Virus record (IMG/VR): IMGVR_UViG_2565956723_000004
DNA from: a virus
Lineage: Duplodnaviria; Heunggongvirae; Uroviricota; Caudoviricetes
Length of the DNA stretch: 40,283 bases
Strand: one strand, 5' to 3'
Shown here: positions 3,093 through 33,680 of the stretch, in pieces
Layout: each line of letters begins with the position of its first letter
Position numbering within the stretch: position 1 is the first letter of the stretch
The notes under the pieces: model-generated
What the model was told of the DNA's origin: nothing
Seen by the model: only the letters and a program-made list of their open reading frames with translations
Database searches by the model: none
Program-made: the position numbers and the translations under genes

Positions 3093-3148
3093 AAATTCTT
3101 AGAAACCGATCACATACAGCTGCATTTATTAAGGTTATCATCCGTTTC
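3093..3148 (+). promoter_or_regulatory. Putative cyaR promoter region with a CRP-like half-site
   Basis: TCACA half-site at 3110-3114, centred about 42 bp upstream of the inferred CyaR 5' end; CyaR is known to be CRP-activated. Upstream half-site is poor. Confidence 0.3.
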
Positions 3149-3235
3149 GCTGAAAAACATAACCCATAAAATGCTAGCTGTACCAGGAACCACCTCCTTA
3201 GCCTGTGTAATCTCCCTTACACGGGCTTATTTTTT
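3149..3235 (+). ncRNA. cyaR: CyaR (RyeE) small RNA
   Basis: Sequence GCTGAAAAACATAACCCATAAAATGCTAGCTGTACCAGGAACCACCTCCTTAGCCTGTGTAATCTCCCTTACACGGGCTTATTTTTT matches my recollection of E. coli CyaR, including the terminator hairpin (CCTGTGTAA/TTACACGGG) and T-run. Confidence 0.85.
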
Positions 3236-3236
3236 A
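3209..3236. repeat. Left prophage attachment core (att), overlapping the CyaR 3' end
   Basis: 28-bp AATCTCCCTTACACGGGCTTATTTTTTA is repeated exactly at 39611-39638 and contains the reverse complement of the P2 att core AAAAAATAAGCCCGTGTAAGGGAGATT. Confidence 0.85.
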
Positions 3237-3636: not shown

Positions 3637-4800
3637 TCACTCATCATCTTCTGTTTCGTACTCCACATCAGAAAGCCTGACCTCAAGCTCTAAGGACGTC
3701 GTGAAGCCGCTATTATTCAGAAAATGTGTCACCTTAGTGATTGTCCAGTCCTGCTCGTCTATGACGCGCTTAAAGCCTGATACTTTAACCGGTGTTTCCG
3801 TGTAAATATCAGCACGACCGGTAGCCAGGCTGATGGAGAACTCCGCAACGCCCCGTTGCAGTTTATCCCACTTCGCCTGAGCGGCACGCATGGCCTGTGC
3901 TTTCGTGGCATATACCGTGGTCAGGGCAAAAACGTTGTCAGCCTCACCGGCCATGTATTCACCTTCGCGCGCTTCCGGTACTCTTGGCGCTTTCTTCTGC
4001 CTGACCGGTTTTGCTTTCGGGTGCTCCAGTGCGCGCAGGTGTTTTTCTTTCTTTTTGCGTTTCAGTTTTACCTTCTGCTTTTGCGGCTTCGGGTCTTTGG
4101 TGTGTAACCACTTTGCCGTTACGCCGGTATAGGCTCCACGGTCAGCAATCGCAAAATGATGGCGGTCGCCGTCGCTGCGGGTGATGGTGACCTGCGGGAT
4201 TTTTTTACCGCTGGCCGTCACCCCCTGCCCCGCTTTGAGAAACAGCAGTTTTCCCATTTTTACCGACACCTCACCGCCGTTGCGTTCTGCAAGACGGGTC
4301 AGGAATTTCGCATCAGACTCCTGCGACTGGTCGATGTGCGGAATTTTAATTCCGGCCAGTGACGGAGCGATACTGGCTTCCAGCCTGTTACGGGAGGCAA
4401 TCGCCTCAACAATCGCACCGAGCGTGGTGTCATGCCAGGAGCCTTCCCGGCGGGAATTGAGCGTCCCGCGAAAATCTGCACTCCGGGCGCGGATGGTGAC
4501 CACATCCGGCGCGCCCCGGTGTTCAACCTCATCAACGGTAAATTTCCCTTTGCATACCAGGGCAAAACCTTTCCAGCCGATATACACCGTCAGGACAGCG
4601 CCACGAACCGGCAGCCCGACCTGCCCGTCGGCATCGTTCAGTTCAATATCAAGCTGGTCAGCCTCAAAGCCCCGGTTATCCGTCAGGGTCATGCTCATCA
4701 GACGGTCGCTGATATTGCCGGTAATATCCCTGCTGTCGAGCATCAGCATGTAATCCGGCGTCAGCGTACTGCCTGCATCAAATGTCAGCGCATCCAGCAT
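3637..4800 (-). CDS. D: Tail protein D (late control gene D), 387 aa
   Basis: Length and position as in P2 D, immediately upstream of ogr. Confidence 0.88.
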   Translation of the reverse strand: MLDALTFDAGSTLTPDYMLMLDSRDITGNISDRLMSMTLTDNRGFEADQLDIELNDADGQVGLPVRGAVLTVYIGWKGFALVCKGKFTVDEVEHRGAPDVVTIRARSADFRGTLNSRREGSWHDTTLGAIVEAIASRNRLEASIAPSLAGIKIPHIDQSQESDAKFLTRLAERNGGEVSVKMGKLLFLKAGQGVTASGKKIPQVTITRSDGDRHHFAIADRGAYTGVTAKWLHTKDPKPQKQKVKLKRKKKEKHLRALEHPKAKPVRQKKAPRVPEAREGEYMAGEADNVFALTTVYATKAQAMRAAQAKWDKLQRGVAEFSISLATGRADIYTETPVKVSGFKRVIDEQDWTITKVTHFLNNSGFTTSLELEVRLSDVEYETEDDE

Positions 4801-5279
4801 TATCCCGCCCCCGTCATACCCGTGAATTTAGTCGCCATACTGCCAGCCTTACCGATGAGCGATTCCGCCTGTTTACCGATATCGCCATAAAGCGCGGCCA
4901 GTGATTCATCAACGCGGGTGAGCGACAGCGTAAAATCAATTTTTCGGGGTGTGCCGTCTGCAAAGAAAATACTCCCTGTTTCACTCACCCTGCGGATGAC
5001 ATACATGCCGTAAATCATGCCGGTGCCATCCAGCAACGGCCACGCCCGGCCTTCCTCTGCCATCAGTCTGAGCGTGGTCATCGTCAGCTTTCCGCCGGTC
5101 AGTTCTGGATAAAGCACACCGGCAAGCGTAATGTTTTCCTCACCCACACCGAGAAACTGGTAGGCATCCCGTTTGCCGATACGGGAATTTGACGGCCAGC
5201 GATAATCTGATTCACGCTGCATGGTCTGGTGTGGCAGCGTCTGGCGCATAAAAACAAACATACCTAACGCGAGCATCAT
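4800..5279 (-). CDS. U: Tail protein U, 159 aa
   Basis: Length and position as in P2 U. Confidence 0.85.
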   Translation of the reverse strand: MMLALGMFVFMRQTLPHQTMQRESDYRWPSNSRIGKRDAYQFLGVGEENITLAGVLYPELTGGKLTMTTLRLMAEEGRAWPLLDGTGMIYGMYVIRRVSETGSIFFADGTPRKIDFTLSLTRVDESLAALYGDIGKQAESLIGKAGSMATKFTGMTGAG

Positions 5280-5293
5280 TTTTCGTCACCTCC

Positions 5294-7741
5294 TTAACCG
5301 TCATGCATCATGCTGGCACGGGCGCGCGCACGTTTATCCCGCTCGTATTTTTCGAGCGCATCCTGTAACTGGCGGTCAAGCTGTGTCCCCGGCGCAGTAC
5401 CACCCGTCAGGCTGATGTGATATTCGTTTTTACTCTGGTCCACATAAGAGCGGCCAGCCGGTGCCGTGACCGGCTGATAAGCTTGATAGCCTGCATAAGA
5501 GCTGGTCGCCGGAATATAACCACCGGTGCCATACGTGGCGGCATGAGTTCTGGCGGCGGTCTGGTCAAGTGTGTCTGACTCTTTGTTGATGACCCCGAGC
5601 TTTTCCAGTACCCAGTCAATGCCGCTGCGCAGTTTGTTGAACGCATTAAGCGGCAGCATCAGCGCGTCAGCCAGTGCCTGCCCGAACATGACGCCCGTGT
5701 CACGGCAACGGTTCAGGGTGTCCTGTGTGGCTTTGACCGGGGCAATCAGGTTTTTAAACCACTGCCACGCGGCCTGTAACTTTTCGCCCAGCCAGTCAAA
5801 CACCGGCTTAAGTGGCGTGAACAGTTCCCCCACCGGCGCAAATGCCGCTTTCAGCCCTTCCACCACACCGCCAAAGAATGCGCTGACAGGCTCCCAGTAT
5901 TTACGGATAAGCAACGCACCGGCGACAATGGCGGCCACCACGGCCACAACCGGCCAGCTAATCGCCCCGATGGCCGTCATAACAGCACTGCCAACCGTCG
6001 TGAAGATTGCCCCCATTGCGCCTGCTGCCGCGATGATGGCATTGATGCCAGTGATAACCGGCCAGGCTACGAGGCCAATGGCACCGATGACAGCAGTCAG
6101 CGCCAGTGCACCACCGACAATGAGGCCGATGGTTGACGCCAGTGATTTGTTTTTCTGGATCCAGCCGTCGAGTTTTAACACATACTTTGTGGCCGTCTGC
6201 GTGAGCTTACGCAGTGCGCCTTCCTGCTGGTCAAACAGGTCAGTCCCCACCGCCTCATAAGCGGACTGAAACTCCTTAAAGTCACCGCCGAGGTTGTCCT
6301 GCATGATATTTACCAGCTCGGCGGTCTTCCCGTCTGAGGCTTTAAACGCAGCGGTCAGTTTGTCCAGCTTTCCAGTTGAGGCGGCAGTCATCAGCACGGC
6401 GGCGGCTGAGCTGGCCTCCTCCCCGAAAATAGTTTTCATGTATTCAGCCTGCTGGGCAGTACCGAGCCGGTTTTTCTCAAAACTGGCCTGCATTTCTTTC
6501 AGAATGGTAAATACTGGTCGAGTATTCCCTTTACTGTCTGAGGTTTTCACGCCAAGCTCTTTCAGTGCATCCCATGCTTTTCCCGTCGGTGCCTGCAGGC
6601 GGCTTAACACGGCACGGCTTCCCGTCCCCGCCATTGAACCGGTAATTTTTGCATCATGCAGCGCCCCGACCATTGCGGCGGTTTCTTCAATGCTGACACC
6701 AGCATTTTTTGCCACAGGTGCGGCATAGGTCAGCGCATCGCTCATGCCATCAAAATCGGCGGCGGTTTTGTTCATCGTCATGGAGAGAACATCCCCGATA
6801 TGAGCGACCTTATCGTTTGAAAGCTGAAAGGCGGATTTCATCCCCATCAGCAGGGCGGCGTTTTCTTCCATCGTGCGACGGTTCGCCAGCGCCATATTCA
6901 GCGTGACCGGCGTTGCCGCCTGAATGGCATCAACATCCCCACCGGCTTTCGCAATAATAATCTGCGCACCGGCTGCATCATCTGCCGAGGCTGCGGTATT
7001 GTCGCCGAGCTGGCGCGCCTGCTTGCGTAGTGCAGCCATTTCGGCGGAGTCTTTTGCCACACCGAGCACAGCCTGCAATTCTGAGTTTTTCTGCGCAAAC
7101 TCATAACCGGGCATCAGCAACTTAACTCCGGCCATCGTTCCCGCAGCAGCAATCCCCACACCGGCAGCGCCCACTGAGGCCATATTTCCGGCCAGTTCCT
7201 TTCCGGCCTGATAACGCTGTTTTACTGCGTTAAGTTTTGCCTGTTGTGCACTGACACGCGCCAGCGCGTCACGCTGACGGTTAAGCTGTGCGGTGGTTTC
7301 ACTGATACGGTTTTTCAGTCCCTGCTCATCATGTGCAAGATTGCGGGTATTAATTCCCACAGCGGCCAGTTCCCGCTGCTGGCGTTTAATGGAATCTGTC
7401 AGGCGGTTATATTTCGCCTGTAAGTCCTCCGCCGCACGCTTTGCGGATTCCAGCACTTTCGCCTGAGCACGGGTCGGACGTTCAGTGTTTTTAAACTGTG
7501 TGGCAAGGGCTTCGGCTTCCTGCCGTGCCTTTTCAAGTGCATGACCAGTCACGGCAAGCTGTGCGCTGGTCTTGCGAAATCCCTCAATACGGGATGCGTG
7601 ACCGTTCAGCTCGCGCAGTGATTTTTGTGTTTCCCGGATATCCCCCGACAGCGACTTACTCGCTGTGCGGATGGATTTAAACGGGCGGGATGCCTGGTCA
7701 ACAGCCCTGAGCAATACCTGTAATTTTACATTGTTACTCAT
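5294..7741 (-). CDS. T: Tail tape measure protein T, 815 aa
   Basis: Ala/Gly-rich coiled-coil and hydrophobic segments; length equals P2 T. Confidence 0.9.
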   Translation of the reverse strand: MSNNVKLQVLLRAVDQASRPFKSIRTASKSLSGDIRETQKSLRELNGHASRIEGFRKTSAQLAVTGHALEKARQEAEALATQFKNTERPTRAQAKVLESAKRAAEDLQAKYNRLTDSIKRQQRELAAVGINTRNLAHDEQGLKNRISETTAQLNRQRDALARVSAQQAKLNAVKQRYQAGKELAGNMASVGAAGVGIAAAGTMAGVKLLMPGYEFAQKNSELQAVLGVAKDSAEMAALRKQARQLGDNTAASADDAAGAQIIIAKAGGDVDAIQAATPVTLNMALANRRTMEENAALLMGMKSAFQLSNDKVAHIGDVLSMTMNKTAADFDGMSDALTYAAPVAKNAGVSIEETAAMVGALHDAKITGSMAGTGSRAVLSRLQAPTGKAWDALKELGVKTSDSKGNTRPVFTILKEMQASFEKNRLGTAQQAEYMKTIFGEEASSAAAVLMTAASTGKLDKLTAAFKASDGKTAELVNIMQDNLGGDFKEFQSAYEAVGTDLFDQQEGALRKLTQTATKYVLKLDGWIQKNKSLASTIGLIVGGALALTAVIGAIGLVAWPVITGINAIIAAAGAMGAIFTTVGSAVMTAIGAISWPVVAVVAAIVAGALLIRKYWEPVSAFFGGVVEGLKAAFAPVGELFTPLKPVFDWLGEKLQAAWQWFKNLIAPVKATQDTLNRCRDTGVMFGQALADALMLPLNAFNKLRSGIDWVLEKLGVINKESDTLDQTAARTHAATYGTGGYIPATSSYAGYQAYQPVTAPAGRSYVDQSKNEYHISLTGGTAPGTQLDRQLQDALEKYERDKRARARASMMHDG

Positions 7742-8161
7742 TCGTGTTTCCGCTTCGCCGGAGCGCCTTTTCGCGCCATGTGATGAGTTCGATCAGGCTC
7801 ATGGGATACAGTTCTGATGGCGGCCAGTGAAATATCACTGCCACATCCGCCATCAGGTCATCGACCGAGAGATTTTTCGGGAACGTTACTGCACCGAGTT
7901 CGGCGACAAAAAACCGACCACCTTACCGGCCAGCGCCACAAGGTCAGGCAGTTCCAGCGCGGCGACTTCCTGCTCGGTCAGCATCGGTGCCGTCATGCGC
8001 GGCAGCACCTTAATCAGTGCATCGACTTCGGAGTTCGCGACCGCAGCCAGACTGACACCGCGCAGCGTCCCGGCATTAGGTTTCATCAGCGTGACCTGTT
8101 CGATAACCTGCTCACCACGCTTGACCGGATTGTCCAGGGTAATCACATTTTCTTTGTTCAT
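7734..8161 (-). CDS. E': E+E' fusion made by -1 programmed frameshift, about 142 aa
   Basis: Slippery GGTTTTTTG on the minus strand (A6 run at 7908-7913 on plus). I translated the -1 frame by hand: it stays open to a TAA at 7734-7736, overlapping the T start. The 142-aa total matches P2 E+E'. Confidence 0.7.
7886..8161 (-). CDS. E: Tail assembly chaperone E, 91 aa
   Basis: 91-aa ORF between FII and T, as in P2. Confidence 0.85.
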   Translation of the reverse strand: MNKENVITLDNPVKRGEQVIEQVTLMKPNAGTLRGVSLAAVANSEVDALIKVLPRMTAPMLTEQEVAALELPDLVALAGKVVGFLSPNSVQ

Positions 8162-8217
8162 GGTTTTCTCACTTCTGAATCGGGGTTAACCGGTCAGCCA
8201 GGCTGACCGGATGAAAA

Positions 8218-8736
8218 TCACAGGCCGATATTGCGGCGGTGTTGCTCCAGCCGGTCGACGCCGTTCACCTTCTCAATCATGTTGATGGTGTCGATTTCGA
8301 CCAGCTCCTTACCGTCCATCGTCAGCCGGAAATAGGTGCAGACCACGGAGATTTTCGACTCGGTGTCTTCTCCCTGTTTGCCCTCGCCGGTGTCGATTTC
8401 TTTCTGACGTCCACGCATGACCACCTCGACGGCCACCGTTTCGCCGGTATCGTCGCGCTGGTAAGAGCCTGCAAAACGAATCGGTACGGAATCCACACCG
8501 GTTGCGGCGTAAAGCTCCCAGATAACCGAATCCGGGAAGCCACCGAGCGACCACTCCATTGACAGCGCATCGTCATCAAGGCCGAGGTCTACCGGTGCGC
8601 TGCCGTTCATCCCCGCACCGCGATAGTTTTCGAGCTTACGGGTCAGTTTTGGTAGCGTGACGGACTTCGCGACGCCCTGATAGCTGTAGCCGTTCAGAAA
8701 GACGTTCATTAACTTGAGTTTGCGCGGCATTGCCAT
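8218..8736 (-). CDS. FII: Tail tube protein FII, 172 aa
   Basis: Length and position as in P2 FII. Confidence 0.9.
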   Translation of the reverse strand: MAMPRKLKLMNVFLNGYSYQGVAKSVTLPKLTRKLENYRGAGMNGSAPVDLGLDDDALSMEWSLGGFPDSVIWELYAATGVDSVPIRFAGSYQRDDTGETVAVEVVMRGRQKEIDTGEGKQGEDTESKISVVCTYFRLTMDGKELVEIDTINMIEKVNGVDRLEQHRRNIGL

Positions 8737-8748
8737 CGGTCAGGCTCC

Positions 8749-9939
8749 TTAATTGCTGTTAACCGAGGTGACCAGATTTGCCAGGTATTTATCGGTAATA
8801 CGCTGGCGCAGGGTCAGGTTTTCAAGAGGAGGCACCGGTGTATAGTCGTAGTCGATATACAGTTTTCCGGCCTTGAGGGTTTCCGCATCGTTGGATTCTT
8901 CGCTGAACCAGCAGGTCGCATCCACGATATAGCCGTTTGTTTTCAGCTCACGGAATTTGGCATTGATGCCGTCAACGATGTCGCGAATCAGCGTTGCGGT
9001 GATGGGCTTGTCCACCGCCCACATGTGCGCCTCAGCCATCGTGTCGGCCATCACCTGCGCGGTGCGGGTGTAGTTTTCAAAGAGGAACAGCGGGTCATCA
9101 GAGCAGGTACGGTTACCCCAGAATCGGAAACCGTCGCGGCGAATCAGCGTAGTGACGCCTGACTCGTTAAGCAGGTCAGCATCGGTGCCGGACTCCTGCA
9201 AATCCCAGAATACAGATGCGCTGATGCCGGTAACACCGTTTACCCCGACGTTGGACAGCGTTTTATGCCAGCCCTGCTCCTGGTCGATTTTAGCGCGCAG
9301 ACCCAGCGCACGGGCGGTGGCATACGCGGTGGCGGTGGTACTGGTGACCGTATCCCATGCGAGGAAATCCGGCCAGATGACCATCAGCTCACGCTGGCTG
9401 AAATTCTGGCGGTAGGCTTTCACCTCGGAAATGGTCTTACAGCCCCATGCGCTGATATATCCGAAAGCGCGCAGCTTCTGACAGACGGATGCCAGTGCAA
9501 CAGCCACCTCTTTGGTATCCAGTCCCGGCACACCGAGAATACGCGGTTTAACACCGGTTACCGACTCCGCCGCCAGCAGGGCTTTTAGTCCGGTGTACTG
9601 ACCGTTTTCGTCGGTGGTGCCGATGATATTGGAAACGGTCTGCGCGAGTTTCGTTTCCTCGTCATCACCGGTGCCGTCTTCCACGCGCACGACAACGGTG
9701 ACCGGTTTTGACTGGTCAGCGATGGCCTGCAACGATGCCGCCAGCGTGCCTTTTTTACCGGCCTTTGCAATTGCGCTTTGCACATTGGTAATCAGCACCG
9801 GTTTATTGAGGGGGAAGGTTTCCGCATCCGCATCGCTGGCCGTGCAGACCATGCCGACAATGGCAGTGGATACGGTGGAAATGACGCGGGTGCCGTCGTT
9901 AATCTCCAGCACCTGCACGCCATGATGATAGTCACTCAT
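8749..9939 (-). CDS. FI: Tail sheath protein FI, 396 aa
   Basis: Length and position as in P2 FI. Confidence 0.9.
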   Translation of the reverse strand: MSDYHHGVQVLEINDGTRVISTVSTAIVGMVCTASDADAETFPLNKPVLITNVQSAIAKAGKKGTLAASLQAIADQSKPVTVVVRVEDGTGDDEETKLAQTVSNIIGTTDENGQYTGLKALLAAESVTGVKPRILGVPGLDTKEVAVALASVCQKLRAFGYISAWGCKTISEVKAYRQNFSQRELMVIWPDFLAWDTVTSTTATAYATARALGLRAKIDQEQGWHKTLSNVGVNGVTGISASVFWDLQESGTDADLLNESGVTTLIRRDGFRFWGNRTCSDDPLFLFENYTRTAQVMADTMAEAHMWAVDKPITATLIRDIVDGINAKFRELKTNGYIVDATCWFSEESNDAETLKAGKLYIDYDYTPVPPLENLTLRQRITDKYLANLVTSVNSN

Positions 9940-10043
9940 CCGTTTAACTCCGTGGTTAATGGGTGCAACTATTTTCTGTTGTGCAGAGCATAAGACGCTA
10001 TTTGACCTGGCTGGTCAGTGGATGAAACAACAGATAAAGAAAA

Positions 10044-10062
10044 GGCGGGCAATTCGCCCGCC
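10044..10062 (-). terminator. Putative terminator hairpin between the cargo region and FI
   Basis: GC stem GGCGGGC/GCCCGCC with 5-nt loop; on the minus strand it is followed by TTTTCTTTATCTG. Confidence 0.4.
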
Positions 10063-10422
10063 TGTCCTGATTTGTACTCACTCATTTTCCGCCTGACAAT
10101 TTACATAGCCCAAATGCTATCAAATCTGACAGTCTGCTTTGAGCGAAAAGTGGACATTAGAGTTACAAAAGCAAGTTTAAATCATCCAAAATATTACAAT
10201 GTCCTTATCTATCTGATATCGTTATGATAAAAAGCTCCTGAATATAATCGATAGTAGGTGGTTATTTCCATGAAATCAATTTTAGAGGTTTTTACTCAAG
10301 GAAATACTAAAGAAAAACTGGCTGTTATCGCCGATCTTGCGTATTACCGTGAAGGAGATCGGTGAGTAACATCGATGGAGATCGGTTCGTGTCACTTTCA
10401 CAGAACCGTTTTTAAATTACCT

Positions 10423-11172
10423 TCACTGATCTCCTTCGGTCAACGGTGATTGTATTTTCCGCATTGATTCTCCTTTAAGTTCGATCTTGATACTGCCATG
10501 AACCAGTCGATCTAGGATGGCATCCGCATGTGTGGAGTCTCCGATCATTTTGTACCAGTTTTCCACCGGCAACTGGCTCACTACGATGATTGAGCCTCGT
10601 TGGTACATCAGATCCACTATTTCCAGCAGGTCGCTACGCTGTTCTGATGAGAGAGGTTCCAGCCCCCAGTCATCCAGAAGCAGCAGATCGCTATTATTCA
10701 GCCTGGTCAAAAGTTTGCTGTATCTTCCATCAGCATGCCCCTGATAGCACTGTTCCATCAGCGCTTTAAGGCGATAATAGTAGACCTTGTATCCCTGTCG
10801 GCAGGCATTATGACCAAGTGCACATGCCAGGAACGTTTTACCGCTGCCGGTGGCCCCGGTCAGTAAAATATTTTGTTTCAGGGTTAACCAGTTTCCCTGA
10901 CTGAGTGAACGGATGAGGGCCCTGTCCAGCCCTCTATTGTTACGATAATCCAGCTTTGATAACTCAGCATTAAGTCTGAACCGTGCATGTTTGATCAGAC
11001 GCTCTGCCTTCCTGTTTTCACGGCAGGTTAGTTCTTCTGCTGTCAGTAATGACAGGCGTTCTTCGAAGCCCAGCTCCTGGTATGTGCCCGGCTGAGCAAG
11101 TTGCTTTTTAAGCGCATCACGGAAGCCGGTGAGTTTAAGTGCGGTCAGTTGTTCGTAAAGATGATTCATCAT
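10423..11172 (-). CDS. istB: IS21-family helper ATPase IstB, 249 aa
   Basis: Walker A GATGSGKT and Walker B LLLLDDWG; overall IstB-like. Confidence 0.9.
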   Translation of the reverse strand: MMNHLYEQLTALKLTGFRDALKKQLAQPGTYQELGFEERLSLLTAEELTCRENRKAERLIKHARFRLNAELSKLDYRNNRGLDRALIRSLSQGNWLTLKQNILLTGATGSGKTFLACALGHNACRQGYKVYYYRLKALMEQCYQGHADGRYSKLLTRLNNSDLLLLDDWGLEPLSSEQRSDLLEIVDLMYQRGSIIVVSQLPVENWYKMIGDSTHADAILDRLVHGSIKIELKGESMRKIQSPLTEGDQ

Positions 11173-11183
11173 TGGATCCCGTA

Positions 11184-12725
11184 TCAGTGGTAATACTCAC
11201 TGCCGCGTACGTTTTCGTGTTCCATCGTGGATAACAGATCTGGTTTTGGATCCTGAACAGGTTGTTTATCCAGACCTTTTTCCAGGATCGATTTAATACC
11301 TGACAGACGCCATACCTTTGTTTTCAGAGCTCTTGCACATGCTGCATTAAGTCTGGCTTTACTGTATTTTTTATGAAGGTTCAGGAGTCCAAGGCAGAAG
11401 CGATAGCTTTGTTCCGGATGTGGACGAGAGTTCAGTATATGAAGCACATAACTATGAGTTTCACTGCCTATGTGCCCCGCCCATTCCAGAAGACGCTCTG
11501 GCGTCCAGGTGGCATGCTGTCGATGAGCTTCAGGCATGTGCTCGTTGCGGGTACTGTAGCCATAAGTACGCTTGCGCGGGTGCACAGCAACCTCCTGCCC
11601 CTGATTGAAGAGTCTTACCAGTTCTCCGGAGATCCATGCTTCCAGTTGCTGGCCTAACAGCGAACATGGAACCGAGTAGTAATGTTTGTCGATTTCCACG
11701 TGGTAATCGGCATGAACTCTGACTTTCTTCACCAGGGTGTAACTGTAACTGGCTTCAGGAAGAGGCTTCAGTGCGGGTTTATCAAGCTGGATGAAGAGTT
11801 CTGCACGTGAATAACCCAACTTCTGCATTATTTTGTTATTCAGTCTTTCCAGCAACTCCCGAATGCGCTGATTAAGCGATGCAAGGCTGTAGAAGATCTC
11901 ATGCCTGATTCGGGCCATGATCCAGCGTTCAACAACCTGAACGCCAACTTCAGCTTTGGCTTTATCTTTCGGTTTACGTGGCCGCGCAGGCAAAACTGCG
12001 ACATTATAATGCTCAAGCATCTGCTGGTAGGTAGGGTTAACGTCAGGATCATACTTACATGCCCTGGATGTGGCGCTTTTCAGATTGTCCGGAACAACAA
12101 GTTCAGGAACGCCACCCAACCACTGGAAGCAGCGAACATGACTCATCACCCAGTCTTCAAGCTGCTGAGACCAGGTGGCCTCTGCCCATGTGTAACTTGA
12201 TGCCCCGAGAACAGCTACGATGACCTGAGCAGTTCTTATTTCTCCGGTCTCAGGGTCGGTAACGCCAACGGTAGGTCCACAGTAATCAACGAAAAGTTTT
12301 TCGCCAGCTTTATGTACCTGACGCATTGATGGTGAAGTGGTTTTGAGCCATTCACGGTACATCCGGCAGTAATGGTTATAGCTGTAAAAACCGCCTGGAT
12401 TACGCTCACAGTATTCTTCCCAGAGTAGCTGCAGCGTCACGCATTTATTACGCAGTTCCCGGTGTACTGTAGCCCAGTCAGGCAGAGAGTGCTTCTTCAT
12501 CTTAACCTGGGTCTGAAGGAACGCATGTTTTAGTTTTGTATCATCCCATCCTGTAGGTAAGGGCCACTGCTTTATGCCAAGTTGAGCCGCCCGATTAGCA
12601 TATCTGGATACAACGGAAGGGGAGATTGCAAGACTACGACCAATTTGTCGATGGCTGAGTCCAACACCGTATTTAAGCCTAAGAATTTCTTTAAGTTTTC
12701 TCATAGAAATTGGAACTGTTGGCAT
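11184..12725 (-). CDS. istA: IS21-family transposase IstA, 513 aa
   Basis: N-terminal HTH (LSHRQIGRSLAISPSVVSRY) and IstA-like core, immediately upstream of istB on the same strand. Confidence 0.88.
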   Translation of the reverse strand: MPTVPISMRKLKEILRLKYGVGLSHRQIGRSLAISPSVVSRYANRAAQLGIKQWPLPTGWDDTKLKHAFLQTQVKMKKHSLPDWATVHRELRNKCVTLQLLWEEYCERNPGGFYSYNHYCRMYREWLKTTSPSMRQVHKAGEKLFVDYCGPTVGVTDPETGEIRTAQVIVAVLGASSYTWAEATWSQQLEDWVMSHVRCFQWLGGVPELVVPDNLKSATSRACKYDPDVNPTYQQMLEHYNVAVLPARPRKPKDKAKAEVGVQVVERWIMARIRHEIFYSLASLNQRIRELLERLNNKIMQKLGYSRAELFIQLDKPALKPLPEASYSYTLVKKVRVHADYHVEIDKHYYSVPCSLLGQQLEAWISGELVRLFNQGQEVAVHPRKRTYGYSTRNEHMPEAHRQHATWTPERLLEWAGHIGSETHSYVLHILNSRPHPEQSYRFCLGLLNLHKKYSKARLNAACARALKTKVWRLSGIKSILEKGLDKQPVQDPKPDLLSTMEHENVRGSEYYH

Positions 12726-13258
12726 AGGTATCCTTTACCGGAATGGCAAAAGATACAGATCAACACACCTGTGAAGTTCCAATAACATTGATGGAGATCA
12801 CTGAATAACAAAATGAGTCAAAAGTGATCTCCATCGATGTTATTCAGCGATCTGTTCAAATGTTATTACCCGATCTCGATGGAAGTTATTGAGTGATCTC
12901 CTTTCATGAAAATACGCAGCCGATCTCACAACCATTGCGGGAATATCGATTGCAACTATTATTGCTGGTTTGTTAACCCTAGTTGCAAAAACAGATAAAC
13001 TAGATGTTGGAAATCTGTTTGGAGTTGTCATAATATCTCTGCTCGGATTGGCTGGTGTTTGCTGTTTTGTGGCCTTATTTATTTGGGTTATAACCCAAAT
13101 GTCTAAACCATGGGGAACACCTCGGGGGGTTCAGCCCTTAGTTAAGTGTGCTATTTCCCTTATCTTTATCTGTATGTTTTTGCTGGCTGTCTTTACATTT
13201 TATGAGTTTATTTCTTCGATGAGCATACGCTATTGAATATAAAATCAGCCCCCATAAC

Positions 13259-13843
13259 TTAAAAGAGACCTTCTATATCGACTTCAATGCCCAAATAACG
13301 GACTGTGCTTTCCAGTTTCTTATGGCCCAACAGAAGTTGGATCCCCCGGAGACTCTTGGTTTTCTTGTAGATTAAGTAAGGTTTTGTTCTTCTCATGGAA
13401 TGTGTGCTGTACAGCGAATCTTCGAGACCAAGCTTTTCTACCCACCCATGAAAAATTCGGTTGTATTGCCGGGTTGATATATGGTGGTTAGTTCCGACCC
13501 GAGAGCGGAACAGGAAGCCTTTACTATGCCAGTTGCCGAGCTTTATCAATGCAGTAACCGCTTCCCTTGTCCCTTTGGTTATCTCAAATTGGACAGGGCT
13601 GCCGGTTTTCTGTTGCAACACCGTTGCTCTGCTTGAGACAGAACTGCCATATGCAGCATCTGATACTTTGAGTTTGACCAAATCACAGCCCCGTAGCTTA
13701 GTGTCCAAAGCCATGTTGAACAGAGCTAGATCGCGTGTTTTACCTTCCAACTCAAGTCTAATCCGGATCCCCCAGATATGAGATATCTGAAGTGGCCTTT
13801 TTTGACCGATGGTACGGTCTTTATTCCACGGTGACGTTTTCAT
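13259..13843 (-). CDS. Small tyrosine recombinase, FimB/FimE-like size, about 194 aa
   Basis: Catalytic signature: Arg in TKLRGCDL, HSMRRT (H-x-x-R), LLGHKKLESTVRY (His and Tyr nucleophile). Start taken at MKTSPWNK with AGGAGA Shine-Dalgarno 8 nt upstream; the ORF track extends to 13945. Confidence 0.75.
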   Translation of the reverse strand: MKTSPWNKDRTIGQKRPLQISHIWGIRIRLELEGKTRDLALFNMALDTKLRGCDLVKLKVSDAAYGSSVSSRATVLQQKTGSPVQFEITKGTREAVTALIKLGNWHSKGFLFRSRVGTNHHISTRQYNRIFHGWVEKLGLEDSLYSTHSMRRTKPYLIYKKTKSLRGIQLLLGHKKLESTVRYLGIEVDIEGLF

Positions 13844-13949: not shown

Positions 13950-14792
13950 TTATTGACAATCATCAATTCTGGAATGATCAAAATCATCATATCGAATTAT
14001 AGTCTGGTTGACTGTATCTATTGTTGGTGTCATTTCTGTTATAATATCCTGATAACCTAAAGAGTTAAATACATTTACTAAGGCCTCACACCGAAGGGCC
14101 GTAGCAATTACAAAATTATAAATTGCCAGCCGTTTATTTTCTTGTTTAACTGCAAGAATGAATTCGATAGCAGTATTTTCATCACTTTGGATTGCATTAT
14201 ATAGAGATACTATATTTACCATATCATCAGAGAATGTATGTATTGAATCACAAAGAGGAACGTAATGGGCATGATAGTGTGTTTCCCAGCCAATTAATTC
14301 AAAAAGTTTTCTGGTTCCTGGATATTCAGGTGTATTTGGCCACAATCTATTAAATAGATCAGTTAGTTCTTTTCCCATGCGAATCCTTTCATTTGCTGCT
14401 GGATTAGTCATTCCTTTGGATTTTAAACACTCCAGCCACCGTTTTCCATTACTATGAACTAATTTCTTACTAGCCTTGAGTAATGCTTGTGCATTTTCGC
14501 CATCATCTATTGCTATATAAAATTGATTGGCAGCCTGTTCTATTATAACCCTAGCTAATACTTCCGATGCTGAAAAGGCTCCTATATTCAAAGAAGAGAT
14601 AGCCTGATTACTAAGTTCATTCAGTACATTAAAGTACTGTAAGACCATCAATTTTTGTTCCACACCCTTTAGGTTGTCTATTTTATTTTTATGCTCCTCA
14701 AATTTTGCATGGATATATTTATTTATCGCGGCTATTTTTTTTACATCTTCGTCAAGATCAAACGGGCAACGTCCAAACAATTCTTTTTTCAT
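13950..14792 (-). CDS. Hypothetical protein, 280 aa, AT-rich cargo gene
   Basis: Complete ORF with CAGGAG Shine-Dalgarno 7 nt upstream of ATG; no motif I can assign. Confidence 0.7.
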   Translation of the reverse strand: MKKELFGRCPFDLDEDVKKIAAINKYIHAKFEEHKNKIDNLKGVEQKLMVLQYFNVLNELSNQAISSLNIGAFSASEVLARVIIEQAANQFYIAIDDGENAQALLKASKKLVHSNGKRWLECLKSKGMTNPAANERIRMGKELTDLFNRLWPNTPEYPGTRKLFELIGWETHYHAHYVPLCDSIHTFSDDMVNIVSLYNAIQSDENTAIEFILAVKQENKRLAIYNFVIATALRCEALVNVFNSLGYQDIITEMTPTIDTVNQTIIRYDDFDHSRIDDCQ

Positions 14793-15213
14793 ATATTTCT
14801 CCTGTTGTACAAGCTTCCATAAGTTGGCAGATTATACACTGAAGATTACCTATAAATAGCTGTGCGGGATAGCAGATCAGTGCAAGAAGTACAACCAAGT
14901 GAACTGTGCGTATTCAGATACCTGGCCTAACGTTCGCGATAGCCGTCCCCTGCACGAAGCCATATATTAGATGTATTAGCTCAGACCTTATCTGACAGGT
15001 TGAGTAGGTAGAATCTAATCAAAGCTGACAGTCTGGTTTGGACTGTGAGTTCAACCGATGGATGCAACACACAGCGATCTACGGACATTACTAGCATAGC
15101 TGTGTATTAATCATCGGGAAGCAGGTCAGTCCGCTCCTAGCACAGAGCAGACTGTCAGATTAGGCTTTACTCTGTGCTATAGATACGTTAGCTCACTCCA
15201 GAGATCATACAAC

Positions 15214-15741
15214 TTATTGCGGCATTTCCGGCCATTCAGGATTTGCAGGATCCACACGGCTGACCAGAACACTGTAGCGTTCCCATGCTTCCAGTCGGCT
15301 ACGCTCATCATCTGTTGCCATATTCAGTCTGACAGAGCGTTCCAGTGGCTGAATGATAGTTTCAGCTTCGGAAAGCAAAGCTGACTTCTGTAATTCCGCC
15401 AGTTGCAGCTGTTCGTCTGCCGTATAAATCCGCTTAATCACGGCACCATCCTTAAACATCCATTTACCTGAGTCATCAGCACGTCGGTTGGCGGTAATAT
15501 CAGGAACCTCGACAACGCTAAAACCTTCAGGGTTGAGCGTTGAAGCATCTCTGGTGATGCCGACAATTATATTATTCTCATCGTAAACAATCTTTATCGT
15601 GTCTTCCTGAAAATTACTTACTTCCTCATACCAGTTTTTTCCCTCTTCGGACCATAACCAGATAACATCAAAATTTTTTGTCAGTTGATATTGGGCAACA
15701 GTTTTTGGATTACCCGCAGTAATATTTTTTAAATGCTGCAT
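15214..15741 (-). CDS. G: Tail fiber assembly protein G, 175 aa
   Basis: Length and position as in P2 G, downstream of H. Confidence 0.85.
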
Positions 15742-20906: not shown

Positions 20907-21039
20907 AAGATCTAGCATGCTGCTGAGAACTGATGAGAACAATAAAAGAGTGTTTTTCTAAGGTTGACACAACACTCCATTTGAAGTGAATATAATGATT
21001 ACTTAACTGGCAAAAAAACATCCTCACTAATTGGAGCCA

Positions 21040-22131
21040 ATGGATACACGCATGTCAGACATTCTAATTACTTATGATGAACGGAAAGATAAATTTGAGT
21101 CCTATGCCCTTACTCTTAAATCGTTATTAACCACGTTAATTCGCAATGAAAAAATTTCAATTCACTCACTTGAATCAAGAGTTAAAACAAAAAAAAGCCT
21201 TGAAGGTAAGATTAATAAAAAGGGAAAATACAAGTCTATAGATGATATTACTGATATCGTTGGTATCAGGATCATCACACATTATGCTGATGATGTTGAT
21301 AAGATAGCTGCTATAGTTGAAAAGGAGTTCACCATTGACCAAGAGAACTCTATTGATAAAAGAACCTCAATTGCGCCTGATAAATTTGGTTACCTATCAC
21401 TTCATTATATAGTAACTTTAAACTCAACCAGAACAAACTTAAAAGAATATGAAGTATATAAAAACATCAAAGCCGAATTACAAATACGATCAATCCTTCA
21501 GCATGCCTGGGCGGAGATTGAACACGACATTGGTTATAAGTCGGCCACAGGACTGCCTAATGAAATAAGAAGATACTTTTCACGCTTAGCTGGTCTTTTA
21601 GAAATGGCCGATGATGAATTTATTAAAATCAGAAAAAAGATTTCTGAACGGCAGAAAGAGGTTGCAAAAGAACTAGAGCAAGGAACTAGTGATTCAGTTT
21701 TAGATATTTTCACTTTGGATGAATTCTTAAACACAAGTCGAATTATGAGTGAACTTTCAGAAGAGATAAAAGAAAAAACAGGAATCACAGTACATGGCCG
21801 ATACAAGGATAAAGATTTGGGATACCTACTAAATGGTTTAAACCTAGCCAACATAACTACAATAGAACAACTCAATCAAAAACTCTCACAAATGAAAAAG
21901 CAGATCGTAGATAGAATATTCTGCTTCGGAGAACCATTTATTAATTATTGCAGAGAAACCCCCATGCCAAAAGAAGCTCTTTTGAGTTATTTATGTCAAA
22001 TTATCGTTGCGTTTCAAAACTCACCTTCGTTAGAATCTGAATTTAATAACAAAGCAGGTTTAAATCTGAAAAACAGCAATATCTCCGATTTTTTCTCGAA
22101 TATAAGAGAAAACATAAGCACACAACCTTAG
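21040..22131 (+). CDS. RelA/SpoT-domain nucleotidyltransferase (toxic small alarmone synthetase-like), 364 aa, probable CapRel-like fused toxin-antitoxin
   Basis: Synthetase-domain motifs RVKTKKSLEGK, DIVGIRIITHY, GYLSLHYIV, ELQIRSILQHAWAEIEHDIGYK; about 170 aa of C-terminal extension; AT-rich; opposite strand to flanking late genes. Start 21040 (ATG after GGAG) is uncertain; ATG at 21052 is an alternative. Confidence 0.8.
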   Translation: MDTRMSDILITYDERKDKFESYALTLKSLLTTLIRNEKISIHSLESRVKTKKSLEGKINKKGKYKSIDDITDIVGIRIITHYADDVDKIAAIVEKEFTIDQENSIDKRTSIAPDKFGYLSLHYIVTLNSTRTNLKEYEVYKNIKAELQIRSILQHAWAEIEHDIGYKSATGLPNEIRRYFSRLAGLLEMADDEFIKIRKKISERQKEVAKELEQGTSDSVLDIFTLDEFLNTSRIMSELSEEIKEKTGITVHGRYKDKDLGYLLNGLNLANITTIEQLNQKLSQMKKQIVDRIFCFGEPFINYCRETPMPKEALLSYLCQIIVAFQNSPSLESEFNNKAGLNLKNSNISDFFSNIRENISTQP

Positions 22132-26425: not shown

Positions 26426-27499
26426 TTACGCTCCCGGCTCTGCGGTCGCCCTGGCCGGTGTGGAGAAATCACCGACCTTAATTTTTTCCACCAGGCAACC
26501 GGCGGCGTAGTCTTCCACCACGTAATCAATATTCATTGACTCGTAGTTCTCCACGCGGTCGAGTTTCGGGTTTTCCACAATCACGCGGCGATGGCTGTCA
26601 TCCATGTAGTAGATGGACAGGTTTTCCAGCTTCGTGATGAGCATCGCATCCGCCGGGAAGTACGGGACGCGTACCGCTGGCAGGTTGCCGATGCGTTTCT
26701 GGCTGATGATGACGTCAGCGGCCAGCATCTCGCTGTTGTCCTGCTCCTTGTTGACGATGGGGAAATACTTGTCCGCCAGTAGCTGACGCCCCACAATCAC
26801 CACAAGGTCAGGGTCTTCCTGATACCACGGTTCAATCAGGTTGTTGGTCGCATCCATCACCAGTGCATCAAGGCTGGCATAATCACCGCCCTTACCCACG
26901 CGGATAACCTCAGAGGTGGTGCGGCCTTCCTCGTCAGTGACCTTGCTCATCACGCGCGCCGGGGCTTCATTGCGGTATTTCTGCAGCCAGCCGACCGCCA
27001 CATCCTGCAACATCGGATTGCTGCTGCGGTCAGAGGTTTCGGCACGCTTCACGCCGTTAAAACCGGCCATGATTAAATCAAGGGACTGGCGTTTGATAAT
27101 GGCGTTACGGACACGGAGCTGGAAATCCTGATAACGCGCCCACAGGTCAAGCGTTTTGTAGCGGATATAAAAATCGAAGTTAATCTGGTCGCATTCGTAC
27201 TTACTGGACGCCAGCTTCGAGAAGTCCTTCGGCTGACGCTCGGTGCCACCGGCGGTGTCGGTGGTGCTGGCGATGGAGCCGGTGACACCAATACCAATTT
27301 TTTCCCCTTTCATTTCGCTGACCGGCACAATGTTGATGCGGGTCAGAAAGTCAGAGGACTCCTGCATGGTGTTCATCAGGGTCTGGGTGACCGACGGTTC
27401 AACGGTGAATTTTTTCGACACATCACCGGCGTCGATGCCGTTCAGCTCGGCAACACGGGACAGGTAGGCATTAAATTTAAAGCGGGTTTCCTGGCGCAT
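26426..27499 (-). CDS. N: Major capsid protein N, 357 aa
   Basis: Length and position as in P2 N. Confidence 0.9.
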   Translation of the reverse strand: MRQETRFKFNAYLSRVAELNGIDAGDVSKKFTVEPSVTQTLMNTMQESSDFLTRINIVPVSEMKGEKIGIGVTGSIASTTDTAGGTERQPKDFSKLASSKYECDQINFDFYIRYKTLDLWARYQDFQLRVRNAIIKRQSLDLIMAGFNGVKRAETSDRSSNPMLQDVAVGWLQKYRNEAPARVMSKVTDEEGRTTSEVIRVGKGGDYASLDALVMDATNNLIEPWYQEDPDLVVIVGRQLLADKYFPIVNKEQDNSEMLAADVIISQKRIGNLPAVRVPYFPADAMLITKLENLSIYYMDDSHRRVIVENPKLDRVENYESMNIDYVVEDYAAGCLVEKIKVGDFSTPARATAEPGA

Positions 27500-31731: not shown

Positions 31732-33564
31732 TCAAACAGAGCCCTGTTCAAATACAGTATCAAAATATGGTAGGAGAGGATAAGCACACAGAAAGAAAAT
31801 CAGGATGCATGCATATGTCGTTGTTTCATCGTAACAAGCATTAGTATATAAATTACCATGTGCTAATTTATGTCTTAAGGTTGCCCCACTCTTTCTATTA
31901 AAAAGAACATCGATAGTTAAAACAAGATTCTTAGAAAAGATACTTTCCAAATCATCTCTGCATTTATCTAGAAGCTGAGAAATACTTGTTGACTCCTCTA
32001 ATCCCTTATCCAAATATCTAGTAGCATCCTTTCCACTAAGCTCATAATAATAACGAACCATACCTTCCATTTGTGGTATTAAAAGATAAGCTGCACTGAT
32101 GTAATCTCCCTGCCATAATTTGTAAAAGCCCAAATTAAAAATCTCCCTAAACTCCGGCTTGACAATTGGACTAGTTGTAACTAATTTAACGAATGTTGAC
32201 AACGTCAAGCCATGTTCTTGAGAAAGTACATAGCGAGCAGGTTCAAAGACACCGTTTACAAAAATCTTATGAGTAATCTCGAAATTTCTTAGATATTGAT
32301 CAATAACAACATCATCACTCATATCTTTTTTATTATTCAACGGCGGGATTGTATATACCTTACGCCCACTCTCATCATTAATTTCTGTTCCAACAAAACT
32401 AGAGAATAAACTTTTTTCTGATAATCTTAAAACTTGCTCCCTCATGCTTTCAATATTTTCAATCGGTGTTTCACGCATTAAAACTTTGAATATATCGGGC
32501 AAAGAACGCCCCGTCAGTTTTTTTTCACTTTCAGCAACCAAGTCACTAATATCAATAGAATGGCTTAAAGTGACATATTCACTCCTTACTTCTTCTCTCA
32601 AATTAGCAAGTTGTTCCTTTAAATCTTCTATCTGTTGGCTATCACCACCATACTGTCTTAATTCAGAGATAGCTGTTCTTAACCAAGAGATCTTACCCAT
32701 ATTATCAGGTCGATCTGTTGCAACTTTAATAGTAATATTTGCAGATGCCAGTTTACATCTCTTGGCACGTTCATACTCACCATTTTTTTCATAAATAACT
32801 GCACTTGTCATATAAAGTGATTTTACAGCATCATAATATTTTTTATCTTTATGCTGCTCAGCCATCTTCTCAGCATTTTCCGCATACTGCAGATTATACC
32901 CATCAAAATCACGCACCATAAACCAAGTCAAATTATTGAAACCTTCAAAGATTAATCTTTCATTTTGAATACTATAAAGAGAATGAATGGCATTTTTAAT
33001 CGCCATGTTTCCTTCTGATTTTCTAGGGTAGACCATTTTATTAATGTGCAAAGCCCTAGCAATATAATCACGAGCAAAAATAAAGCAATTTAAATCACTT
33101 TCATCCATGCTTTCGTTTTTTATTATTAGTTTTTCAATTGCTATATTTAGCATTTCAGCATAGGAATCAATTGCTTTAATTGCCACGTCTTTGTTTTTCC
33201 GGTTATTACACCAAACAACATCATATATTCTTGATAACAAAAATGGATTGGTTATTTTTTGAGAAACATATAAAAGACAGTCATTCACCTGCTCATCAAA
33301 ATCTTCAGGCAATATTGATCTTTTATTACCCCAAATCATTTGGGGTTCAAATGATGGAGTGTTGTTAACAACTTGCAAATTGAAACTATATAGCATACCA
33401 AAAAGAGATGCTAATTTTTTCTCTTTGGGGTTTCCTGATGATTCAGCAATCCCATCCAGATATTTTTTTATTTTATGTGCATGAAATGTAACTGGTATAT
33501 GCATAAAAACACTATAATCTAGTGTTTCAAGCTCTTCCCTTGTAAGAACAAAGATATCATTCAT
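31732..33564 (-). CDS. Hypothetical protein, 611 aa, AT-rich cargo gene at the tin/old position; candidate anti-phage effector
   Basis: Long ORF; start chosen at MNDIFVLTR with AAGGTG Shine-Dalgarno 7 nt upstream (the ORF track extends 34 codons further to 33666). C-terminal ...SGATLRHKLAHGNLY... fits R-x4-H. No Walker A, HExxH or YxDD motif seen. Confidence 0.75.
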   Translation of the reverse strand: MNDIFVLTREELETLDYSVFMHIPVTFHAHKIKKYLDGIAESSGNPKEKKLASLFGMLYSFNLQVVNNTPSFEPQMIWGNKRSILPEDFDEQVNDCLLYVSQKITNPFLLSRIYDVVWCNNRKNKDVAIKAIDSYAEMLNIAIEKLIIKNESMDESDLNCFIFARDYIARALHINKMVYPRKSEGNMAIKNAIHSLYSIQNERLIFEGFNNLTWFMVRDFDGYNLQYAENAEKMAEQHKDKKYYDAVKSLYMTSAVIYEKNGEYERAKRCKLASANITIKVATDRPDNMGKISWLRTAISELRQYGGDSQQIEDLKEQLANLREEVRSEYVTLSHSIDISDLVAESEKKLTGRSLPDIFKVLMRETPIENIESMREQVLRLSEKSLFSSFVGTEINDESGRKVYTIPPLNNKKDMSDDVVIDQYLRNFEITHKIFVNGVFEPARYVLSQEHGLTLSTFVKLVTTSPIVKPEFREIFNLGFYKLWQGDYISAAYLLIPQMEGMVRYYYELSGKDATRYLDKGLEESTSISQLLDKCRDDLESIFSKNLVLTIDVLFNRKSGATLRHKLAHGNLYTNACYDETTTYACILIFFLCAYPLLPYFDTVFEQGSV

Positions 33565-33680
33565 CGTTTTCACCTTTTTCAGTATAAATTTGCACACATT
33601 ATTAGCAACATAATTATCAATAGTTAACACATGTAGATAAACAGCAATTTTACTATTATGCAACAAATTAAATCAGATGT

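Follow-up and report, generated by a model that had tools for sequence, protein, structure and literature searches.

The window analysed here, that is, the whole 40,283-nucleotide stretch of IMG/VR record IMGVR_UViG_2565956723_000004, contains an entire P2-like prophage in which a copy of the insertion sequence (IS) ISEc12 lies inside a small gene predicted to encode a membrane protein. The features of the locus are collected in Table 1.

Both genes of the IS are uninterrupted and lie on the minus strand in the order istA, istB, as judged from the list of open reading frames (ORFs) and from domain matches. IstA has an rve integrase core and a Mu-transpos_C_2 domain, and matches the transpos_IS21 model NF033546 (1.3e-92; 310 bits against a cut-off of 160). 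IstB matches PF01695 IstB_IS21 (2.2e-67) and NF038214 (1.8e-80; 270 bits against a cut-off of 200). The ends of the element read 5'-TGCGTATT...AATACGCA-3'; their first 8 nt are identical, and the similarity extends imperfectly to about 25 nt, so that TGCGTATTACCGTGAAGGAGATC starts at 10338 and its imperfect inverse, ...GATCTCCTTTCATGAAAATACGCA, finishes at 12918. The sub-terminal regions of both ends contain repeated GGAGATC(G/A) and CCGATCTC motifs, which may be binding sites for IstA. Hence, the IS21-family element with intact istA and istB that had been drawn here in an initial annotation, made from the sequence alone, proved correct to the base in its ORFs, domains and ends.

The name ISEc12 was taken from the RefSeq/PGAP label "IS21-like element ISEc12 family" carried by identical copies: over all its 2,581 bp, the IS of the window shows 100% nucleotide identity to copies in other E. 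coli genomes. In our reference set of 5,426 complete E. coli genomes, ISEc12 matches were detected in 1,909, on chromosomes and plasmids and with a median of 3 places per genome, and a near-full-length copy was present in 1,366. Identical TGCGTATT...AATACGCA ends were found in the 16 other copies that were fetched.

Table 1. Features of the ISEc12 insertion locus and of the surrounding cargo region (positions in the window).
Feature	Position	Strand	Remarks
24-nt imperfect palindrome GTCTGCTTTGAGCGAAAAGTGGAC, B-type	10132..10155	+	bounds the small-gene cassette and the Z-region cargo on the left
Putative expression signals of the small gene	10243..10261	+	TATAAT at 10243-10248, Shine-Dalgarno AGGTGG at 10256-10261; read off the sequence
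Small gene, 5' piece	10270..10337	+	codons 1-22 and 2 nt
Target-site duplication, left copy GCCGATCT	10330..10337		abuts the left IS end
ISEc12 (IS21 family)	10338..12918	-	2,581 bp; TG...CA ends; imperfect terminal inverted repeats of about 25 bp
istB, AAA+ helper ATPase	10423..11172	-	249-aa ORF; RefSeq version 248 aa, WP_001016257.1
istA, DDE transposase	11184..12725	-	513 aa, WP_001298859.1
Target-site duplication, right copy GCCGATCT	12919..12926		abuts the right IS end
Small gene, 3' piece	12927..13236	+	rest of codon 23 through codon 125, and stop
Short tyrosine recombinase, catalytic domain only	13259..13843	-	194 aa from ATG; ORF to 13945 from TTG
DUF5677 protein, third cargo gene	13950..14792	-	280 aa; PF18928 5e-10; annotated in S88
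24-nt imperfect palindrome GTCCGCTCCTAGCACAGAGCAGAC, A-type	15129..15152	+	right boundary of the Z-region cargo; inside the annotated "left inverted repeat" of AJ512676-83

The empty site and the age of the insertion

When positions 10270-10337 were joined to 12927-13236, thereby removing the IS and one copy of the flanking repeat, an ORF of 378 nt was obtained, with 125 codons and a stop codon. Among the repeat-length offsets tried, the frame was kept only when the length equalled 8 modulo 3. The uninterrupted frame of about 126 codons proposed in the initial annotation is thus restored, preceded by the TATAAT and AGGTGG signals that it had pointed out. In the interrupted gene, the frame from the ATG enters the IS and yields a 31-amino acid (aa) peptide, MKSILEVFTQGNTKEKLAVIADLAYYREGDR.

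The reconstructed empty site (585 nt) was covered to at least 80% in 63 of the 5,426 genomes, with 96-100% identity, and among the matches listed it always formed one uninterrupted piece. Nine genomes among those listed, including S88, MS7163 and PCN033, are identical to it over the full 585 nt. The gene region is uninterrupted in 63 of the 64 complete genomes that carry it. Uninterrupted homologs of the reconstructed gene do therefore exist; strain S88, for instance, annotates the intact ORF as a 125-aa hypothetical protein, WP_000836023.1 (gene and native upstream region at 2176058-2176642 of NC_011742).

The junction between IS and gene seen in the window was found in none of the 5,426 genomes, and the 88-aa C-terminal ORF created by the insertion had no record in a large assembly index. 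Comparison with the S88 prophage revealed one mismatch, a single nucleotide polymorphism (SNP), in about 37.7 kb. The structural differences were two: the small gene harbours ISEc12 in the window, and in S88 the element instead occupies the gene for the major capsid protein of that same prophage. The interrupted S88 capsid gene (NC_011742, 2189776-2193435) contains an ISEc12 identical to ours, and the capsid gene is intact in the window (26426-27499). As one SNP and the position of the IS are all that separates the window from the S88 prophage, the insertion appears to be recent and strain-specific. Furthermore, two backgrounds that are nearly identical carry identical IS copies at different sites, which is direct evidence of very recent transposition and makes it very probable that the ISEc12 copy in the window is still mobile, as had been suspected.

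In MS7163, a P2-like prophage has an ISEc12 copy between its terminase and portal genes. As the copies of the window, S88 and MS7163 all reside in prophages of this kind, ISEc12 strikes P2-like prophages repeatedly. Two apparent parallels to the insertion were examined and rejected. An 88-aa ORF (P0080) that resembled the product of another insertion at the same site belongs to a divergent locus that lacks an IS, and a 73-aa ORF (P0021) taken for an ISEc12 junction reflects a 13-bp deletion allele, together with contigs that end at the same spot.

The target-site duplication is longer than usual

Target duplications of the IS21 family range from 4 to 8 bp according to ISfinder. Here, an exact copy of GCCGATCT abuts each IS end and, because the bases next to GCCGATCT differ at either side, the duplication is exactly 8 bp. 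The chance of finding the same 8-mer at both fixed IS ends is 4^-8, about 1.5e-5, and the empty sites of other genomes have one GCCGATCT copy. The 8-bp duplication, already noticed in the initial annotation, is therefore genuine. It is, however, atypical for ISEc12: among 16 other copies, the duplication was 5 bp long in 12 and 6 bp long in 3, one copy had none, and no copy had 8 bp. A published insertion of ISEc12 in tssM also shows a 5-bp duplication (PMC10711316).

These lengths are the reason to consider that the apparent 8 bp might consist of a normal 5-bp duplication (GATCT) plus three nucleotides (GCC) of a former flank that match the target by chance. We regard this explanation as extremely unlikely. 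It requires a 1/64 coincidence as well as aberrant end cleavage; the element measures exactly 2,581 bp and is identical throughout to other copies; the empty site has a single GCCGATCT; and a duplication of 8 bp falls within the range described for the family.

The target sequence at the insertion is GCCGATCTC. The duplicated octamer and the base that follows contain CCGATCTC (12920-12927), an octamer that is also present in the sub-terminal repeats of the IS and that occurs three times inside the element (10355-10362, 10378-10385 and 12870-12877). In the 37.7 kb of IS-free sequence, CCGATCTC is found only twice (12920-12927 and 39190-39197), where shuffles of the whole window lead one to expect 0.9. 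ISEc12 has thus landed on one of two such copies, an observation made post hoc. It could be due to chance or to capture of an end-like target, and a CCGATCTC-like motif was absent from the flanks of 11 other ISEc12 insertions. A target consensus for ISEc12, suggested by junction alignments that ran into the flank, was discarded since the 11 flanks share no consensus and the extensions are attributable to chance.

The interrupted gene encodes a predicted three-helix membrane protein

Kyte-Doolittle windows detect three hydrophobic helices, at residues 16-45, 47-83 and 90-123 approximately, and an AlphaFold2 model built from an alignment of 40 sequences places helices at 13-44, 50-81 and 91-120 (mean predicted local distance difference test score, pLDDT, 79.8). 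Hence, the three-helix topology initially proposed is obtained by two procedures. By the positive-inside rule, the N-terminus (K2, K14, K16) and the second loop (K83, R89, K96) should be cytoplasmic. The protein is therefore probably N-in/C-out, with its conserved N-terminal helix and the SKPWGxPRGVQ loop facing the cytoplasm.

Close homologs form 21 clusters at 90% identity, and all those with an organism name belong to Enterobacterales. An exhaustive profile search yielded 56 representatives at 50% identity, aligned end to end and 70-180 aa in length, mostly around 120-130 aa. A scan of species-representative genomes found the gene at a single locus, in Pectobacterium. The family shares a conserved N-terminal motif, G-x-AKERLAxxAD-xxSIxGVS, and its close members also share the loop SKPWGxPRGVQxLVKC; the broad family alignment was too diverse for pattern scanning. 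The 40 aligned family members all match phrog_4155, a group annotated as of unknown function. Pairwise ratios of nonsynonymous to synonymous substitution rates (dN/dS) across seven genera or contexts are mostly 0.15-0.5, which indicates that this is a real protein-coding gene under purifying selection. The region upstream of the gene is conserved across genera, and both the promoter region and a terminator hairpin are kept. The gene is transcribed in the direction opposite to the late genes, and its own expression signals suggest that it is presumably expressed independently of them.

An ISEc12 copy transposed into codon 23 of this 125-codon gene, duplicating 8 bp of target. As the insertion cuts through the best-conserved motif of the protein, GNxKEKLAVIAD/L (the slash marks the cut), the gene is inactivated.

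The gene is cargo of the P2 Z-region, between palindromic sites

The small gene is located between the sheath gene FI (8749..9939) and the tail-fibre assembly gene G (15214..15741), and the gene order is the same in S88. This site is the known "Z-region" hotspot of P2 (the Z/fun locus), and the accessory nature ascribed to the site in the initial annotation is correct. GenBank records AJ512676-AJ512683, which describe the "proviral Z-region" of P2-EC phages, annotate left and right inverted repeats; at positions 9940-10165 and 15129-15230, the window shows 89-93% identity to the "Right/left inverted repeat" of AJ512677 and related records. The cargo in these sister records is annotated as "putative lysogenic conversion protein". 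Variability of the P2 Z-region was reportedly the subject of Nilsson et al. in 2004, in a paper whose title is said to point to site-specific recombination.

Two imperfect palindromes of 24 nt bound the cargo. They conform to the pattern GTCYGCT-N10-AGYRGAC, which has only these two sites in the 40-kb window (0.02 expected), and differ in their centre, GAGCGA in the B-type site and GGCACA in the A-type. In most related loci fetched, sites and genes follow a simple grammar: a B site, one or more genes and an A site, with neighbouring units joined as A-18 nt-B. Examples are loci L032 (sites at 4965, 5820, 5862 and 6743), L035 (3701-6766) and L037, as well as L056 of strain CFT073 (3841-8132) and L057 of strain F070 (4377-9787). 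Wherever the related loci carry such sites, each cassette is enclosed by a B and A pair; this applies to P2 Z-regions as well as to the chromosomal islands of CFT073 and F070. Moreover, homology between the window and loci of other genera begins within the B site or just after it.

The second cargo gene encodes a short tyrosine recombinase (PF00589, 6e-17) that keeps the catalytic RY. In both the window and S88, a deletion joins the terminator hairpin of the small gene to codon 190 of the recombinase, at 13276/13277, and alignment to 200-aa homologs indicates that the last 10 residues of the recombinase are replaced at this junction. Homologs with 80-100% DNA identity were found in 845 of the 5,426 E. 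coli genomes, often annotated as "site-specific integrase" and surrounded by variable hypothetical genes; in the chromosomal islands of CFT073 and F070, the recombinase gene sits amid units that have A and B sites on their flanks. The possibility that the enzyme is an invertase of the FimB/HbiF type, able to flip the promoter of the small gene, was considered and rejected: its NF007371 score is 20 bits against a cut-off of 222, and the near-full-length matches listed are all single collinear pieces. The literature on HbiF contained nothing relevant to this idea.

The third cargo gene encodes a DUF5677 protein. A 2025 preprint counts a DUF5677 ORF among the candidates picked for anti-phage testing (PMC12632615). 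PADLOC-DB v2 returned no family for the small protein, the recombinase or the DUF5677 protein.

A speculation that we rate as rather doubtful would make the small gene a single cassette within an integron-like platform of Enterobacterales that has so far gone unrecognised. Such a platform would consist of units of one or two genes, many of them defence-like, that start with a B-type site (GTCCGCTGTGAGCGAAAAGCGGAC-like) on their 5' side and close with one of the A type (GTCCGCTCCTGGCACAGAGCGGAC-like) on their 3' side, and the recombinase of about 200 aa would move them between islands and the P2 Z-region.

The small gene is found beside NTPase genes in other loci

In Serratia, Enterobacter (three loci), Klebsiella and two unassigned loci, the unit that extends from B to A comprises the small gene and a convergent gene for a 556-aa protein. 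The latter matches nSTAND1 at the Pfam threshold, and gives only weak matches in PADLOC (PDC-M28C, 7e-5). In each of three sampled E. coli P2 Z-regions where the small gene stands alone, the 320 bp downstream of it still encode residues 498-555 of this nucleoside triphosphatase (NTPase), with 81-84% identity. These remnants, of about 58 codons, lie at ~845-1018 in L031, ~6526-6684 in L032 and ~5862-6035 in L055. No NTPase stub is left in the window. Because sister prophages retain a stub of the partner NTPase and the window has the deletion junction described above, the small gene is best read as the surviving half of a two-gene cassette.

The two distant members of the family whose context could be recovered also lie near genes for defence-type ATPases. 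An AriA/Old/GajA-like ATPase is encoded immediately downstream in loci L058 and L059, and an NsnB/HEC-03B-like ATPase is encoded two genes upstream in L060. The family occurs outside prophages too, in chromosomal islands and integrative elements.

Possible functions of the small protein

A role of the small protein in defence or exclusion is plausible. Within this frame we tentatively favour, at somewhat short of an even chance, that it may serve NTPase-based conflict (anti-phage) cassettes as their membrane partner or effector; this reading is preferred because the association with NTPases recurs across divergent members and with different NTPase families. Inactivation of the gene in the window would then remove whatever residual activity the orphan gene had. 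A different possibility, which we consider quite unlikely, is that the protein acts as a stand-alone superinfection-exclusion factor, a role that the initial annotation had proposed alongside abortive infection; as such it would be an inner-membrane protein, expressed in the lysogen, that blocks DNA entry by other phages in the manner of the unrelated Z/fun, the occupant of the same site in P2, which blocks T5. The location in the Z-region, the expression signals with an orientation opposite to the late genes, the three membrane helices and the "lysogenic conversion" label given to the cargo of the sister records (AJ5126xx) all fit such a role. So does the survival of the gene without its NTPase in dozens of E. 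coli prophages, with at least 80% of the site present in 63 genomes. However, no similarity in sequence or fold to any known exclusion protein was found in PADLOC, Pfam, NCBIfam, 50,697 phage genomes, the PDB or BFVD, and the presence of the family outside prophages and its repeated association with NTPases also speak against this role. A further candidate function is that of an orphan immunity protein against a membrane-targeting toxin, be it a pore-forming bacteriocin or an ionophore delivered by contact-dependent inhibition (CDI) or a type VI secretion system (T6SS). Immunity proteins of the colicin E1/Ia type are often small and have 3-4 helices, a size and topology that the protein fits, and the Serratia and Yersinia loci have polymorphic-toxin-like genes (DUF8093 plus a phospholipase or nuclease domain) at a distance of 3-6 kb. 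Those toxins are, however, nucleases and phospholipases that have immunity-like genes of their own adjacent to them; no toxin gene adjoins the small gene in 10 contexts, and no immunity family of Pfam or NCBIfam matches it. An immunity function is thus very improbable.

One may also ask whether the gene had any function left to lose. It could already have been a functionless leftover of a degraded two-gene cassette, in which case the insertion would be selectively neutral and would simply add to the decay of a grounded prophage. Consistent with this view, the NTPase gene is deleted (sister prophages keep 58 codons of it, the window none), and the integrase of the prophage is frameshifted. Signs of decay are also found in the gene itself. 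In MSI001 (L055, 4152-5483), the IS5-family element ISKpn26 interrupts the same 125-codon gene at about nt 294; on a metagenome scaffold (L002, 6001-6222), 13 bp between TTAT repeats are deleted at about nt 220; and some family members have variant C-termini that are consistent with frameshifts. In addition, dN/dS between two orphan P2 copies is 0.75, but this value comes from about 10 substitutions and carries no statistical information. Together, these disruptions and the orphan dN/dS hint at relaxed selection in the orphan P2 context. On the other hand, the near-universal integrity of the gene region among the complete genomes that carry it (63 of 64) and the conservation of promoter region and terminator hairpin make us regard the idea of a functionless remnant as unlikely. 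Three short contigs from other samples (L003-L005) end where the 13-bp deletion lies.

Besides these signs of decay, several observations weigh against the favoured NTPase-effector reading or against the account as a whole. The NTPase gene is convergent and hence not co-transcribed with the small gene; the neighbours of the small gene differ in Yersinia and Pectobacterium; and the small gene persists alone in E. coli, which argues either for an autonomous function or for slow decay. No match to the 125-aa protein was found in Pfam, NCBIfam or PADLOC, nor by tblastn against the 50,697 phage genomes, and Foldseek searches of the model against the PDB and BFVD returned nothing with E<1. The promoter scan did not detect an acceptable -35 element, and the 8-bp duplication is out of line with the ISEc12 norm. 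Altogether, and with these points taken into account, we hold with considerable confidence the overall picture of a recent ISEc12 insertion that inactivated a cargo gene of the Z-region, with the cassette context outlined above.

Other features of the prophage

The prophage carries the genes from ogr, D, U, T, E and FII/FI through A, B, cox, C and int, and measures about 36.4 kb with the IS and 33.8 kb without it. Its integration site is the 3' end of cyaR, the gene of the small RNA (sRNA) CyaR (Rfam match at 3147-3232, 100.7 bits). Its ends are marked by a 28-bp attachment (att) core, AATCTCCCTTACACGGGCTTATTTTTTA, directly repeated at 3209-3236 and 39611-39638; the first copy overlaps the 3' end of CyaR. 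CyaR was the sole match in an Rfam scan of the window, and the boundary palindromes of the cargo region fit no RNA family. The integrase gene (38522-39531, plus strand) is split into overlapping ORFs of 231 and 105 aa, and the identical sequence of S88 is annotated as "frameshifted". The frameshifted integrase indicates that the prophage is degrading, and it probably can no longer excise.

Additional cargo was detected at two other variable sites. A 366-aa product, annotated as GTP pyrophosphokinase in S88 and matching the PADLOC candidate PDC-S33 (1e-16), is encoded at 21031-22131 (plus strand), between baseplate and tail-completion genes. A 644-aa DUF7380 protein (31732-33666, minus strand; PDC-S39, 1e-84) is encoded beside the portal gene, in the old/tin-type hotspot. 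Between the cargo and the late operon, on the minus strand at 10043-10063 and about 100 bp upstream of the sheath start, AGGCGGGCGAATTGCCCGCCT forms a strong hairpin that resembles a terminator, with a T-run after it.

Significance and comparison with known systems

Part of what is described above was already known, namely ISEc12, its family, the hotspot and the inverted repeats. The insertion site, the atypical length of the duplication and the uncharacterised family that was hit are new. The insertion in itself is a minor event, in which an abundant and active IS has recently hopped, once more, into a dispensable gene of a prophage in decay. Its value lies elsewhere: the disrupted allele is a natural knock-out of a conserved, uncharacterised family (PHROG 4155), and an isogenic intact allele is available in S88. 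The surroundings outweigh the IS, as their cassettes follow a clean order of B site, genes and A site, and as they include a small recombinase that recurs with the same sites in islands such as that of CFT073. If the recombinase moves cassettes, this would explain the exchange of accessory and defence genes between P2-like phages and enterobacterial islands. The recombinase would then be the enzyme behind the "site-specific recombination" that reportedly figures in the title of Nilsson et al. (2004), a paper that may already propose one.

The element conforms to ISEc12 and to its IS21-family relatives, IS21 and IS100, in the istA/istB pair, the TG...CA ends, the sub-terminal repeats and a short target duplication. 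It differs from known ISEc12 copies in its insertion site, which is new among the 5,426 genomes, and in an 8-bp duplication where 5-6 bp are usual. Likewise, the locus resembles the P2 Z-region in its position between G and FI, in its flanking inverted repeats and in the presence of unrelated "lysogenic conversion" ORFs with their own promoters. The cargo is different: a three-helix protein, a short tyrosine recombinase and a DUF5677 protein, with one of the genes disrupted by an IS. A tblastn search of the 50,697 phage records, the published Z-region records among them, found no match to the membrane protein.

The small protein shares with P22 SieA and SieB, T4 Imm, HK97 gp15 and P2 Z/fun the condition of a small, prophage-borne protein, predicted to reside in the inner membrane and endowed with its own expression signals. 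It shows, however, no detectable relationship to any of them in sequence or structure, and its family also occurs outside prophages and beside NTPases. The latter trait recalls STAND/Avs-like systems and ABC-ATPase defence systems of the AriA/GajA/Old type, since the gene recurs beside such ATPases in surroundings that resemble defence islands. Unlike two-gene systems made of an NTPase and a transmembrane effector, the partner families vary here, the STAND-like gene is convergent, and no pair corresponds to a defined PADLOC system.

Integron gene cassettes offer the closest parallel to the arrangement of the units: one or two genes between imperfect palindromes, organised head to tail, with a tyrosine recombinase gene in the array or beside it. 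The sites of the window are, however, 24 nt long and of two types, B at the 5' side and A at the 3' side, unlike attC, and the cassettes have their own promoters. As the recombinase has about 200 aa and scores 46 bits with the XerA/integron-integrase model, against a cut-off of 220, the resemblance to integrons is one of organisation alone.

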